A stretch of 54,693 nucleotides of DNA from an uncultured Candidatus Saccharibacteria bacterium (GCA_964641015.1 CAZXJN010000005.1:1-54693), one strand, 5' to 3'. Counted from the stretch's first letter, positions 2,214 through 51,230 are shown. Made by a program: numbers and translations. Notes: generated from the letters alone by a model not told the origin.

Positions 2214-2311
2214 CGCGCACCTTTTTTGAGCCCATCACTGCCAAGCAGTCTCCTTTCGGCCAAGGGCAATCTACCCCTTAGCCAAGGCTTTCATCAACTT
2301 GTATTTTTCTA

Positions 2312-2340
2312 ATCTGTAAAAGGCCTGGCCTTTTACAGAT
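2312..2340. terminator. Bidirectional hairpin terminator between convergent operons
   Basis: ATCTGTAAAAGGC-ctg-GCCTTTTACAGAT, 13-bp perfect inverted repeat. Confidence 0.7.
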
Positions 2341-2389
2341 AGAGAATTTGCAAATTTTATAATTACCACCCTCAAAAGAGGTGCGTGCG

Positions 2390-2962
2390 CTAAAGCTTGC
2401 CGCCAAGGCGGAATGCTTCAAAGGCTAGTTTCAGGGCCATTTTGGCGTCTTCGAGTGGGTGGTGGATTTTATGCCCAAAATCTTCGTCCAGAAGCTTCTT
2501 TAGCGCCCGCCTGCTTGACCCTGCACCATGCTCGGTCATAATCATGATCGACGAAAGTTCTAGCAATGGGAAAGGGTGCTGCCAATAACGCTCCTCTATA
2601 TTTGCATCCTGGCAATCCAGCAAGAATCTATACTCAACGGGGTAGCCATTGTTAACAAGAACATAGTCTGCATCTTGCTCGGCCTCTACATACCAAGCCC
2701 AGAACGCCTCCCGTAGCTCCTCGTAATTATTATGAGTAATCGGCATGTCGGCTATAGCTGGCAGGACATTATTTTTTACCCATTCATCAGTTTTTTCAGT
2801 CAGTCGGGCCCGGGCAGTAAATTCATTTAGTATATTACCCTCAGCATCCATAACAGCCGCTCCAATAGCAAAAGCCTTGCCATGCAGCCCGTTTGTCTCT
2901 AGGTCAAAACTAAGCAGTTTTGTCTGCCTGGTGATATTCGGTGTTTTAGCAGGCTTGCTCAC
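2390..2962 (-). CDS. DEDD/DnaQ-like 3'-5' exonuclease family protein
   Basis: ExoI motif SFDLETNG; ExoIII-like HHPLEDA. Confidence 0.75.
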   Translation of the reverse strand: MSKPAKTPNITRQTKLLSFDLETNGLHGKAFAIGAAVMDAEGNILNEFTARARLTEKTDEWVKNNVLPAIADMPITHNNYEELREAFWAWYVEAEQDADYVLVNNGYPVEYRFLLDCQDANIEERYWQHPFPLLELSSIMIMTEHGAGSSRRALKKLLDEDFGHKIHHPLEDAKMALKLAFEAFRLGGKL

Positions 2963-9111: not shown

Positions 9112-9134
9112 ATTTTCTGGGGTCAGAACCTAGA
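9112..9134. repeat. 23-bp intergenic repeat, copy 1
   Basis: ATTTTCTGGGGTCAGAACCTAGA, identical to 20532-20554. Confidence 0.85.
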
Positions 9135-20531: not shown

Positions 20532-20554
20532 ATTTTCTGGGGTCAGAACCTAGA
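20532..20554. repeat. 23-bp intergenic repeat, copy 2
   Basis: Identical to 9112-9134; here it extends to a 10-bp hairpin with loop GTCAGAA. Confidence 0.85.
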
Positions 20555-23402: not shown

Positions 23403-24116
23403 CTAACTCTTGATTTCAAAATTCGTGTGGGTGTTGCTCACGTCGTCCAGCTCATCGAGTGCATCCATAAGCCGCTCGATTTTACCGATGGTAGCTTCGT
23501 CTGACACCTCAATGGTATTGTTCGGCTCGTAGGATAACTCTGCCTGCTCTATCTCAATTCCTGATTCTTTCAACGCGTCGCGGACCTTGGCTAGATCAGT
23601 CTGGGCCGTATAGATAATGGTCTCGCCGTCCATTTCCTGGACGTCTTCTGCACCAGCATCAAGCGCTGCCATCATCAGATCATCACCGCCGCCCTTGGCG
23701 ATAATCACGCCTTTTCGCGTAAACTGGAATGCTACGGCACCCTTTTCGGCTATGCTGCCGCCGTGCTTGTTGAATGCGTTGCGCACTTCAGGATAAGTCC
23801 GGTTAACGTTGTCTGTGGCGCATTCTACAAGTATTGCTACGCCGCCTGGCCCGTAGCCTTCGTACATAACCTCCTGCAGCTGGGCTGCTGACTTGTCAGC
23901 AACGCGCGCAATTGCCCGGTCGATGTTGCTGCTAGGCATGTTGGCGGCCTTGGCTTTCTCTATAGCCATGGCAAGCGCAGGATTCATTGACGGGTCAGTG
24001 CCGCTGCGGGCCGCAATGGCAATCTGGTTGCCGATTTTAGTAAACACGGCTCCGCGCTTGGCATCTTCTACGGCTTTGCCGCGCTTGATTTTACTCCATT
24101 TGTTGTGTCCCGCCAC
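23403..24116 (-). CDS. yebC: YebC/PmpR family protein
   Basis: GTG start at 24116 with SD AGAAAGGA; AGHNKWSKIK, YEGYGPGG, TDNVNRT. Confidence 0.95.
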   Translation of the reverse strand: MAGHNKWSKIKRGKAVEDAKRGAVFTKIGNQIAIAARSGTDPSMNPALAMAIEKAKAANMPSSNIDRAIARVADKSAAQLQEVMYEGYGPGGVAILVECATDNVNRTYPEVRNAFNKHGGSIAEKGAVAFQFTRKGVIIAKGGGDDLMMAALDAGAEDVQEMDGETIIYTAQTDLAKVRDALKESGIEIEQAELSYEPNNTIEVSDEATIGKIERLMDALDELDDVSNTHTNFEIKS

Positions 24117-24139
24117 TATTGGTTTCCTTTCTGTGCACA

Positions 24140-24268
24140 CTTATTTTGAGAGTGGTAATTCGTCCTAAGCTAAGGACATTTCTTCAGCGTATACATAATA
24201 CGCTGCCGAAATGGATGCCTCATCTTGGCGCAACTGACGCTTGGCTCAAAAAAGCCGCTTGACTGTGT
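24140..24268 (-). ncRNA. Candidate structured 5' leader of yebC (homolog at 50779-50909)
   Basis: TTTTGAG/CTCAAAA closing stem and internal hairpins; sequence blocks shared with the RRM leader. Confidence 0.55.
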
Positions 24269-24338
24269 TAATGGTTCGCACAAATTACCCTTAGCGCAAA
24301 ATACCTGCTTCACTCTGTTTGTGTAAGGTCTTTTATTA

Positions 24339-25790
24339 CTACTCGAGGTAGTTTGTATCTGTTATTTTAGCATTTTTTGGTAGTTTCTGCCACCAGATGA
24401 AAGTAACAAGCAAAATAATACCGTACAGAAACACCATAGCGCCCGTACCGAGCAACACTTCGAACTGCATATTAGGAATACGCGCAACCAAACCTGCCAT
24501 ATCGAGCAGATATGTAAGAATGAGCCGTGCCGGCCAAGCAAACCACCCCGCCACCGCTGGCAGCATTGCCCCCGCCAGACCTGCAACAAATGCCGCCATC
24601 ATGCCGAGCGGAATCAGAGGCACTACTAACAGGTTCGCAAGCAGTACCATATAGCTTGATTCATTAAAAATATACAAAATAATGGGCAGCGTCATGATCT
24701 GTGCCGCAAAGCTCTCTAGCGCCAGCTCGCCAAACAGCCCTGGCTTTTTGTCTTTGTAGATACGTTTTTTCATCACTGGCGCTACCATCAGCACGCCAAA
24801 GAAAGCCAGAAACGATAAGTACCAGCCTATATCAGACCACAGATACAGCGGGCTCCATAGCGCAGTACCGGCAGCTGTCATCAGGATAATGAGCAGAGCC
24901 TTCATTCGTCGGCCAAAATACCACGCACCAAGAGATAATATGCTGATGATTGATGCACGTACAATTGACGGCTGTGCGCCAGTCACGAGCAAAAACGCAC
25001 CTATCAACAGGCATGCGGCTGCCAGCGCTTGAAATTTTGACCGCTTGGCAAACAACCTACGGGTCGCCCTAACGAGAATTGTGAGATTGTACCCTGACAC
25101 GGCGATAATATGCGTCAGTCCTACCATTGCTAAGATTTCACTGGTATGTTCGGGTAGAGTGTCCCGTTGCCCGATTAATATTCCCAGCCCAAACGATGCC
25201 TGAGGCTCTGGCAAAGCAGATTGGATTCCTGCAGAAAAATGCCTGGTCGCATTAAACACCACTGACTGAGAGCGACCCGTCACCTCCAATTGTGCATAGC
25301 TCATCCAGGCAGTGTATGACCCTCGACCCGGAGAAAACTTACCAGACACCAATACCTCATCGCCGCGATAAATCATCCGCTCGCCATAGCCGGATACGCC
25401 CACCTTACCGACGATTGGCCGCTCGCCATCAGGAGTCACCAACCTCAATGATCCCAGATCAAACGATATAGCACCGCGTGCATCATACATGCTGTCGCTT
25501 AACACCCTGCCGTGCAGTACGACGTTTTGTTTGCTGAGAGTTTGCACAAAATCAACCTCAGCCATGTATAATCCACCCCGCCACCACCCTAGACTCAGGC
25601 CGAACACAATCGCTGCATACACAGATAGCAACCGGCCCCGGCGAAAGCTCACCAAAAATAAAAATCCAAATATAATCGGCCACCACCCGCTGATCTCACC
25701 ACCCACGCGGGCCCATGCGAGACCCGCAAGTATTGCCGTACTGCAGAGGATAAACCTCGTAGTCCGACGGTAAACTGTACGCCGCTCCAT
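24339..25790 (-). CDS. comEC: ComEC/Rec2 DNA-uptake channel (no C-terminal beta-lactamase domain)
   Basis: GLTHIIAVSGYN, GAQPSIVRA, DIGWYLSF motifs; OB-like region; probable start ATG25790. Confidence 0.93.
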   Translation of the reverse strand: MERRTVYRRTTRFILCSTAILAGLAWARVGGEISGWWPIIFGFLFLVSFRRGRLLSVYAAIVFGLSLGWWRGGLYMAEVDFVQTLSKQNVVLHGRVLSDSMYDARGAISFDLGSLRLVTPDGERPIVGKVGVSGYGERMIYRGDEVLVSGKFSPGRGSYTAWMSYAQLEVTGRSQSVVFNATRHFSAGIQSALPEPQASFGLGILIGQRDTLPEHTSEILAMVGLTHIIAVSGYNLTILVRATRRLFAKRSKFQALAAACLLIGAFLLVTGAQPSIVRASIISILSLGAWYFGRRMKALLIILMTAAGTALWSPLYLWSDIGWYLSFLAFFGVLMVAPVMKKRIYKDKKPGLFGELALESFAAQIMTLPIILYIFNESSYMVLLANLLVVPLIPLGMMAAFVAGLAGAMLPAVAGWFAWPARLILTYLLDMAGLVARIPNMQFEVLLGTGAMVFLYGIILLVTFIWWQKLPKNAKITDTNYLE

Positions 25791-35351: not shown

Positions 35352-36058
35352 TACAGCACCTCCTCTAAGGCGCGGCCGGCGCGGGCAACGAGCGCGGTCA
35401 CGTCACGGTAGCTCTGGCGGGTTGGACCAAGCACACCGATGTAGCTCTGATCCGAATAAGGACTTCCGAATCGACTAATAATCAAGCTACAGCCTGCACT
35501 GCCGCCAATAGGATTCTCACGGCCGATGTACACGCTAAGCGGATCGTTTGGGGCTGCCTCCCTGAGCCATGGCTCAAGGTTATCGAGCAACCGGGCTACC
35601 TCTTGCACCTGGCCTGGGTGGATGAACTCCGGCTGGCCAAAAAGATTAGACAGGCCACTCATATAGAGTTGGTCACCGATGGTCGCCAGACCCAAATTGT
35701 GAGTAAGCTCCACAAGTGTATCTACCGCGTTACGGATTGTTCGCTCCGGCAGCCCACCATGCTGCACACGAGTAGTAATCGCTCTTTCTCCACGGCGCTC
35801 GAGTGGCGTCTGCTCTTGCTCGGTTTCACTGAGATAATTTACATAATAACGATAGCCCTTATCAGTAGGTATGCGTCCCGCACTGGTATGCGGCTGTTTT
35901 ATGTATCCCAATCGCTCCAGCTCGGCCATTTCGGTGCGTATGGTTGCACTCGATACGCCAAAAACCTTCGCCAGCAAGCTGCTGCCCACTGGGCTGGCTA
36001 CTTCTGCATATTGCTCAACAATAGAGAGCAAAATTGCTCGTTGTCGCTCAGTTATCAT
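35351..36058 (-). CDS. hrcA: Heat-inducible repressor HrcA (short 235-aa form)
   Basis: [35 protein letters not shown]; IGVLGPTR; CIRCE upstream. Confidence 0.95.
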
Positions 36059-50505: not shown

Positions 50506-50534
50506 ATTGTAGCGTACTTTTGCTGATTTGTCAA
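50506..50534 (-). promoter_or_regulatory. sigma70 promoter of the 27-aa ORF
   Basis: Minus strand TTGACA(50534-50529)-17 nt-TACAAT(50511-50506). Confidence 0.75.
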
Positions 50535-50778
50535 CAATGCATATGCTTATTCAACCTTCCGCCCCTGTTTTTTAGTTTGCGCTTTTTTATTTATCATGCT
50601 TTACTTAGGATGCAGGTACTAATCTGTCGTAAGCGAGTCAAAGAAAGTTCAGCCACGAGCAGTTAACGCCGGGTCAGAGTTCGGACAAAGTAAGACGGAA
50701 ATAATAAAGGTCGAATTGTTACCCTGCGTTAACAACTTAGCTACTGCTCAAAGCCCTCGAGGCCTAGGGTCGTAGCAC

Positions 50779-50909
50779 CACTGTGAAGCGGCTCTTTTGA
50801 GCCAAGGGTAGTTTTCTGATCATCGGAGCACTATTTCGGAGACGTATTTATTATACGATGGAGAAATATCTCCGAATGAGCAGGAAACTACCACTCTCAA
50901 AAGAGCCGC
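50779..50909 (+). ncRNA. Candidate structured 5' leader of the RRM gene (homolog of the yebC leader)
   Basis: 14-bp stem GCGGCTCTTTTGAG/CTCAAAAGAGCCGC; GGTAGTTT/AAACTACC; TATTTC/GAAATA; CGTAT/ATACG. Confidence 0.6.
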
Positions 50910-50933
50910 GCGCACATATAAGTAAGGAAAAGA

Positions 50934-51230
50934 ATGTACAAATTGTTTGTAGGCGGTCTACCTTTTGCAACAACCGAAGATGAGCTTCGCGATGTATTCG
51001 CAGCTCACGGTGCAGTTGCATCAGCAGTAGTCGTCAAAGACCGCGACACCGGTCGCAGCAAAGGTTTTGGCTTCGTCGAGTTTGAAAACGATGACGAAGG
51101 CAAGGCAGCCGAGAAAGCCCTCAACGGCTCTGACCTCGCCGGCCGCTCTATCACCGTGAACGAAGCTCGTCCACGCGAAGAGCGCCCTCGCCGCGATTTT
51201 AATGGTGGCGGCAACAACCGCAGCTGGTAA
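50934..51230 (+). CDS. Single-RRM RNA-binding protein (Rbp type)
   Basis: RNP2 LFVGGL, RNP1 KGFGFVEF, ITVNEARP, RG-rich tail. Confidence 0.95.
   Translation: MYKLFVGGLPFATTEDELRDVFAAHGAVASAVVVKDRDTGRSKGFGFVEFENDDEGKAAEKALNGSDLAGRSITVNEARPREERPRRDFNGGGNNRSW

Follow-up and report, generated by a model that had tools for sequence, protein, structure and literature searches.

The structured sequence lying upstream of both yebC and an RRM gene in the window (the whole 54,693-nt stretch of DNA analyzed) is an interspersed non-coding element of approximately 138 nt, which we call R1. Very likely it is a repeat spread by insertion, as opposed to a leader dedicated to particular genes. The fuller statement, that R1 is an insertional repeat which folds on one strand, is REPIN- or IS200-derived in style and has probable side effects on mRNA, is held as a whole with somewhat more belief than doubt.

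Architecture and covariation of R1

R1 opens with a 5' box of consensus ACCAC[AT]GT[CT]AAG, continues as a rod-like, imperfect hairpin of approximately 41 bp, and closes with the 3' end GCGCRC. Two conserved internal loops interrupt the hairpin: CCAAG opposite ACT near its base (loop 1), and a purine-rich 5x5 loop beneath the CGTAT/ATACG tip (loop 2). Given that the flanking DNA is unrelated from copy to copy, the borders of the element are sharp. After a pattern search and nhmmer, a CM was built from 16 distinct copies in the genome. The three methods together (pattern, nhmmer and CM) yielded 17 strong, full-length copies, scoring 91-143 bits, and approximately five weak or partial ones in the 803-kb genome; the first-pass annotation had described two, both in the window.

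Compensatory change is observed at 27 of the 41 pairs among the 16 copies of this genome, and at 28 of the 41 pairs among 48 copies from seven other genomes. In those 48 copies, aligned by fitting to the R1 model, 93.8% of cells are paired, against 34-49% when the partners are slid, and none of 500 shuffles reaches the observed value. A set of 16 copies from several families, likewise fitted to the model, presents at least two Watson-Crick types at 28 of the 41 pairs. The compensatory changes read from two copies in the first-pass annotation are thus genuine and form part of this wider pattern, and the internal loop CCAAG/ACT it had singled out is kept across the order. The possibility that the 5' box pairs instead with the 5' strand was discarded, as inspection found no covariation for it.

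At the gathering threshold, Rfam 15 yielded only tRNAs in the window. At E<=10, the yebC copy has no match and the RRM copy matches only microRNA and snoRNA noise, at 14-20 bits. With 78 copies, 28 covarying pairs and no Rfam entry, the case for a new structured family is well supported.

The copies at yebC and at the RRM gene

The window features are listed below.

24133..24269 (-): R1 copy in the yebC 5' UTR (CM R1 116 bits, E 5e-29), consisting of 5' box AACACAGTCAAGC, a long imperfect hairpin and 3' end GTGTGCAC
24279..24310 (-): partial 5' R1 copy (GAAGCAGGTATTTTGCGCTAAGGGTAATTTGTGCG), directly upstream of the full yebC copy (nhmmer fragment and flank listing)
23403..24116 (-): yebC CDS (ORF list, flank, orthologues)
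24364..24393 (-): probable yebC promoter, extended -10 TGCTAAAAT, inside the comEC 3' end (promoter scan)
50777..50913 (+): R1 copy in the 5' UTR of the RRM (rbp) gene (CM R1 133 bits, E 8e-34)
50934..51230 (+): gene for an RRM-type RNA-binding protein, 98 aa (ORF list)
50577..50737 (+): rbp promoter TTGCGC-17-TTTACT (preceded by TGC) and conserved leader of approximately 125-150 nt, present in 20 of 20 family genomes
2215..2392 (+): third, degenerate R1 copy (CM 27.9 bits at 2234-2388; fold -68.8 kcal/mol, z -8.1)

Both full copies lie in sense orientation just before the start regions and share the sequence blocks previously quoted for them, with a mean column identity of 78% when aligned. 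The yebC start codon, GTG at 24116-24114, is 17 nt past the end of R1 (24133), with the SD AAAGGAA between; the ATG of the RRM gene, at 50934, is 20 nt past the end of its copy (50913). The RRM copy folds at -65.1 kcal/mol (z -10.3 versus shuffled sequence), and the fold of the yebC copy is weaker (-39 kcal/mol, z -2.9).

The yebC-side copy sits between yebC and comEC, whose stop is at 24339. We infer that transcription starts at the extended -10 inside comEC, which would give a yebC 5' UTR of approximately 240 nt which contains R1 and the partial copy, versus approximately 40 nt in relative G019. The TGnTAAnATAACAGATA motif is kept upstream of yebC in relatives. At least ten other full R1 copies are also preceded by a 5' partial copy.

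At rbp, R1 is inserted between a conserved leader and the SD, and adds 137 nt. The conserved blocks of this leader (GCAGGTACTAATCTGT..AGTTCGCC..AACGC..GAGTTCGG..AAGACGGAA..GGTCGA..CTGCGTTAACAA) are distinct from R1, and 18 of the 20 family genomes have the leader without R1; no match to it was found in Rfam. The conserved leader of rbp is thus at 50577-50737 and distinct from R1, and it possibly serves autoregulation. A divergent near-consensus promoter, TTGACA-17-TACAAT (11/12), is located at 50506-50534 (-), facing the tail of the upstream gene, and is kept upstream of rbp in relatives.

As predicted from sequence, a very stable hairpin would form the last ~137 nt of the 5' UTR at both yebC and the RRM gene, ending 3-8 nt before the SD, and R1 may there stabilize the mRNA or insulate the ribosome-binding site. 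Any such effect on mRNA would be a side effect common to tuf, groEL, rpmA and other genes, and not a specific co-regulation of these two.

In the degenerate copy at 2215-2392 the basal stem and both ends persist, but the palindrome CTGTAAAAGGCCTGGCCTTTTACAG takes the place of the apical part; the 3' end of the copy overlaps the stop codon of a convergent ORF, 2390-2962 (-).

Copy number and distribution

R1 forms a multi-copy family confined to some of the Saccharimonadales. In the family to which the window belongs, it is present in 11 of 20 genomes, with zero to approximately 17 copies each, and congeners differ: in one genus, one species has no matches and another has 12. Order-wide, 15 of 201 sampled Saccharimonadales genomes carry it. 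When the pattern was scanned against 185,579 species representatives (GTDB, one genome per species), the matches were exclusively Candidatus Saccharibacteria/Saccharimonadales MAGs, apart from one probable chance match; among viral contigs, the single pattern match is inside a coding region and was unconfirmed by the model. Given that Saccharibacteria genomes are tiny and streamlined, a structured repeat in their 5' UTRs and gene spacers is unexpected. Among the papers searched, none ties Saccharibacteria to RAYT, REPIN, MITE or structured repeats, and none describes R1.

Placement and orientation

Placement was surveyed for 78 copies in 20 genomes using simple ORF calls, with ambiguous cases resolved in favor of the longer ORF. 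Copies survive only at the edges of coding regions, and their orientation is fixed for each kind of edge. Approximately 35 copies are in sense and end 12-21 nt (mode 14-16) upstream of a start codon, with the SD in the interval. Approximately 36 are antisense to a convergent gene; measured from its stop codon, their 3' ends lie at -3 to +18 nt, and at least 48 nt separate these copies from the next start. The remaining copies, about seven of the 78, are tandem or ambiguous. No sense copy among the 78 was found in a trailer of the form stop, element, promoter, next gene, and no antisense copy was found between a promoter or upstream cistron and an SD. The fallback reading of the first-pass annotation, a miniature mobile repeat recognizable by many copies in random orientation or between convergent genes, is therefore borne out in the number of copies and in the location of some of them between convergent genes; their orientation, however, is strict and not random. 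An orientation fixed with respect to replication was rejected as an explanation: on contig C1, tuf, pilB, ppa and the FKBP gene lie on one strand, and their R1 copies point both ways.

Sense copies are mostly found before highly expressed genes. In the home family, the genes which follow them are tuf, groEL, rpmA, rplK, efp, ybaB, ppa, yebC, rbp and an aminoacyl-tRNA synthetase gene. The 15 copies from other families are without exception in sense, 7-17 nt before the start codons of rpsR, rplK, rplL, rpsG, tuf, groES, clpP, ybaB and ylqC. The rpsR site is occupied in seven genomes of four families (G003; four species of genus g15; G029; G192). At rpsR of G090, clpP of G054 and ybaB of G177, the sites with a recognizable promoter, the 5' box begins a few to approximately 20 nt, as judged by eye, past the likely transcript start. 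Directly upstream of the clpP copy (L223, G054) are a perfect CIRCE operator, TTAGCACTC-N9-GAGTGCTAA, and a -10 box.

On contig C15 (14598-18549), three tandem paralogous genes encode probable surface proteins of 345-355 aa with an N-terminal membrane anchor, and an antisense R1 copy stands behind each of the two examined. G003, G004 and G017 have this arrangement too, which indicates that this type of gene and R1 were duplicated together.

Strand-specific folding, promoters and terminators

The same strand of R1 is constrained to fold whatever the neighboring gene. Folding with RNA parameters favors the sense strand in 20 of 22 leader copies and in 30 of 36 convergent ones; DNA parameters give 22 of 22 and 30 of 36. 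Stems on the sense strand hold 116 G-U against 53 A-C appositions, an excess present in both classes of copy. The copies behind these counts and behind the fold energies are related to one another and were aligned to the model, so the values are not independent.

No sense-directed sigma70-like promoter was found within 60 nt upstream of any of 40 convergent copies. Ten of the 40 have a sigma70-like promoter on the other strand, which is the promoter of the next gene. Given the lack of sense-directed promoters, convergent copies are probably not transcribed in sense, and the persistence of the sense-strand bias among them suggests either that single-stranded DNA is under constraint or that they descend recently from source copies functional in sense.

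The 5' flanks of 62 copies share no sequence, and the idea that R1 carries a promoter of its own was dropped on account of this and of the promoterless convergent copies. An outward -35 box (TTGACA, contained in the reverse of the 5' box) was also considered, and inspection found no consistent -10 at the right spacing. Nor does R1 qualify as an intrinsic terminator: there is no U-tract in either direction, the stem being followed by GCGCRC in sense and by CUURACAGUGGU in antisense. U4 precedes the basal stem and A4 follows it, an order opposite to that of a terminator, and a terminator scan at both window copies found none beyond a small internal stem.

Occupied and empty orthologous sites

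The presence and absence of R1 at orthologous sites indicate that copies arose by insertion and were lost again. Among 19 family genomes, the yebC locus has R1 in only three: this genome (G000), G010 and G012. Divergent hairpins with R1's ends are found at yebC in G011 and G001, and G016 retains a remnant, the 5' box joined directly to the 3' end (ATCACAGT|TGCGCAC). The remaining yebC loci mostly have spacers of approximately 10-25 nt, and the upstream context differs in G009, G013 and G005. At the rbp locus, only two of 20 family genomes, G000 and G012, have R1. These frequencies do not agree with the leader specific to yebC and the RRM gene that the first-pass annotation had proposed.

The closest relative, G009, whose YebC is 92% identical, has no R1 match. 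Eleven of its sites were compared as orthologues of occupied ones, and ten are empty; these include the spacer between groES and groEL, the 5' UTR of tuf, and the positions behind ppa, pilB, the FKBP and ZIP-transporter genes and a sigma-like gene. The eleventh, at rpmA, holds a decayed relative of R1. In genus g49, each of three species has one copy, at a different place: between tig and clpP, between rplJ and rplL, and before ybaB. Where the other two species lack the copy between rplJ and rplL, their spacers are short, clean and empty, and in one species (G054) the ybaB slot holds a different hairpin.

Metagenomic yebC loci presented an R1 match, a weak one, in one of 80 cases. The metagenome scan with YebC found no close pairs of filled and empty sites, given that the best YebC relative is only 76% identical, and a look-up of the exact RRM protein for strain-level relatives returned nothing on record. 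Neither a transposition intermediate nor a strain-level polymorphism was found. A whole-genome search for solo or empty target sites, with the 5' box joined to GCGCRC, gave one match, which is coding. No target-site duplication was found in 62 junction pairs; the junctions have a weak TA-rich preference, with no further target motif seen.

Unrelated hairpin-rich inserts of 75-190 nt occupy the slot of R1 at rbp in G003 (L101) and G011 (L096) and at ybaB in G054 (L231). The slot between the transcript start or leader and the SD attracts or tolerates various structured inserts.

Y1 transposase genes

Six-frame searches found PF01797 (Y1_Tnp) above cut-off in eight of the 11 family genomes with R1 and in none of the nine without it (hypergeometric p = 0.0013, with kinship between genomes ignored). 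Among genomes with at least four copies, seven of eight have a Y1 gene; the one without it is 89% complete. Y1 is also absent from seven genomes with one or two copies, including those of g49, in which the single copy occupies a different locus in each species. The only Y1 gene of this genome is as follows.

Contig C2:35776-36393: Y1 gene, 205 aa, HUH motif PNHFHLL and tyrosine motif RYIHLNP

Its protein scores 34.6 bits against PF01797 (cut-off 23), and its best NCBIfam match is NF047646, REP-associated tyrosine transposase (REP_Tyr_transpos), at 41 bits, below the cut-off of 80. A PDB sequence search with the protein gave nothing significant. The gene adjoins mnmA both here and in G008, and is bracketed by palindromes.

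R1 was not found near Y1 genes at five inspected loci, and none of 22 Y1 loci is beside an R1 locus. The palindromes that bracket the Y1 genes are short, differ from R1 and vary by species. In favor of a link, these palindromes bear CACCACAT-type tags in G008 and in two units of this genome, and in G014 an exact R1-type 5' box, ACCACAGTTAA, precedes the palindrome flanking a Y1 gene. It may be that repeat-rich genomes simply hold both R1 and Y1.

In this genome, a 19-mer palindromic unit, CTAGGTTCTGACCCCAGAA, occurs in six copies, two of which, inverted, bracket the Y1 gene. Sites of the unit are 9115-9130 (-) and 20535-20550 (-) in the window, and 35723-35738 and 36416-36431 on contig C2; two other copies are followed by AATGTGGTG...TATATTGACA. 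The unit is probably the cognate REP-like repeat of the Y1 gene.

Comparison with known repeat systems

R1 lacks at least one defining feature of each of REP/REPIN-RAYT, ERIC/IRU, Correia-type MITEs and IS200/IS605-derived elements. Like REP/REPIN-RAYT of Proteobacteria, it comprises extragenic hairpin repeats in tens of copies per genome, patchily distributed and with compensatory change, and high copy number co-occurs with a RAYT-like Y1 gene carrying HUH and Tyr motifs. However, the REP tag GTAG/CGTC is absent, the tag-like 5' box of R1 being ACCACWGTYAAG. Whereas a REP is a palindrome of 20-40 nt and a REPIN is two inverted REPs, R1 is one hairpin of approximately 125 nt, whose arms, unlike REP palindromes, fold inconsistently on their own. 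A RAYT gene is flanked by its cognate repeats, yet R1 never flanks a Y1 gene and some R1 genomes have no Y1; moreover, the orientation of R1 to genes is strict, unlike that of REP/REPIN.

ERIC/IRU of Enterobacteriaceae, imperfect palindromes of ~127 bp, resemble R1 in size, in their rod-like hairpin and in their transcribed intergenic sites next to coding regions. Their sequence is unrelated and they occur in either orientation, whereas the orientation of R1 is tied to context and its ends are sharply asymmetric. Correia elements (CREE/NEMIS, Neisseria) and other MITEs are, like R1, small non-coding insertions at gene edges which enter mRNAs, and can alter mRNA processing and stability. MITEs have terminal inverted repeats to their very ends and a target-site duplication (TA for Correia), and R1 has neither: its ends ACCACWGT... 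and ...GCGCRC are not mutual inverted copies. The PATEs derived from IS200/IS605 share with R1 asymmetric ends, lack of duplication, strand-specific folding and a Y1 gene in the genome; they have separate left and right subterminal hairpins, though, and insert 3' of a fixed tetra- or pentanucleotide, in contrast with the one long hairpin and weak TA-rich junctions of R1. Integron attC sites were rejected as a match: the 5' box contains GTTAAGC, but the stem is not closed by a complementary RYYYAAC, and the neighbors are core housekeeping genes.

A further comparison is with the E. coli ompA and B. subtilis aprE and ermC leaders, whose 5'-terminal stem-loops stabilize mRNA, and with the RNase III sites of phage T7. 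As with R1, these are stable hairpins near a 5' end, before the SD or between cistrons, in highly expressed genes; unlike R1, they are features of single loci and not dispersed repeats.

Origin of R1 and alternative explanations

In the insertional reading, the R1 hairpin would be the form which is recognized and copied, probably as single-stranded DNA. RAYT-like Y1 (HUH) transposases would handle this hairpin, as with REP/REPIN and IS200/IS605-derived elements, and selection would then purge the insertions that harm a gene or its signals, leaving the copies at gene edges. That the Y1 enzymes mobilize R1 is a tentative suggestion about which we are doubtful; the lack of R1 beside Y1 genes counts against a direct link. 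A purely selfish element would not be expected to obey a strict orientation rule, which counts against the insertional reading as well, and the sense-only copies outside the family, together with the rpsR site in four families, hint at a function.

These last observations bear on the proposal that R1 is primarily a functional RNA module of the 5' UTRs and intercistronic regions of highly expressed genes which has been moved around. It could act as a stabilizing hairpin at the 5' terminus, insulate the ribosome-binding site or be processed in the manner of an RNase III site, with antisense copies as by-products or 3'-end protectors. Besides the 15 outside-family copies, all 7-17 nt before start codons, and the recurrent rpsR occupancy, it draws on the short distance from the likely transcript start to the 5' box in G090, G054 and G177, which is the layout of known 5' stabilizers, on the near-constant distance to the start codon (mode 14-16 nt), on the non-canonical loops kept across the order, and on the different hairpin filling the ybaB slot of G054. 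Yet most orthologous genes in close relatives have no R1, the gene served varies by species, and 36 copies are antisense to the only nearby transcript while retaining the sense-strand folding bias. We consider this proposal unlikely as the primary explanation, though worth serious attention, and it would be compatible with a mobile element if R1 is partly domesticated. A combined form would make R1 a mobile, orientation-dependent "expression cassette": a domesticated hairpin copied as single-stranded DNA by RAYT-like enzymes, which in sense would provide the most highly expressed genes with a protected and insulated 5' UTR ending 14-16 nt before the start, which in reverse would be tolerated or used only right after a stop codon, and whose rpsR copy, common to four families, would be the ancestral working copy and the source of the family's spread. 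This version is speculative and rather improbable.

If the copies at stop codons were terminators or 3'-end stabilizers acting on the strand of the gene, and this explained the family, one could point to the 36 copies at -3 to +18 nt from a stop, at the end of a transcription unit and with at least 48 nt to the next start, to the sigma-like gene, which in G009 has a canonical terminator where this genome has R1, and to the reverse strand, which also folds well (mean -46 kcal/mol). Against this, the stem is followed by no U-tract in either orientation, the strand opposite the gene folds better in 30 of 36 copies, and most such genes in G009 have no terminator at all, which makes the explanation quite improbable. 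A dedicated leader, protein-binding or thermosensing, which co-regulates YebC and the RRM protein, as the first-pass annotation had put forward, is very hard to sustain: both copies are indeed in sense, directly before the SD and well folded, and the yebC copy is common to three genera and the rbp copy to two, but at least 17 copies lie before or behind unrelated genes in the genome, 16 of 19 yebC and 18 of 20 rbp loci of the family have no R1, the metagenomic yebC loci add one weak match in 80, and rbp has a different conserved leader of its own. Independent small-RNA genes would account for conserved structure, strand-specific folding and sharp ends, but not for the lack of a conserved upstream promoter (0 of 40 convergent copies with a sigma70-like one within 60 nt) or of a terminator, and we give this idea hardly any credence.

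For the RAYT-like Y1 genes known from the candidate phyla radiation, R1 is a candidate substrate. Its orientation is tied to the kind of gene edge while the same strand folds better throughout, which constitutes a natural experiment for separating constraints at the DNA level from those at the RNA level. R1 also cautions annotators of these genomes that "conserved leaders" common to a handful of genes may turn out to be dispersed repeats.

Other sequence features near R1 copies

Pyrimidine-rich repeat runs (TTCCTA/TTTCTA/CTATTCC) lie beside R1 at C9:19100-19290, C9:30100-30300 and C1:81500-81700. They are located just upstream of the next gene's extended -10 promoter, and are absent at the G009 counterparts.

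A motif, ACAACAGGGGT/ATAACAGATA, is found at or just past the promoters of rplK, yebC, ybaB and others (L022, L029, L040, L213, and C1:111240-111260). It may be a promoter-proximal signal specific to the lineage.
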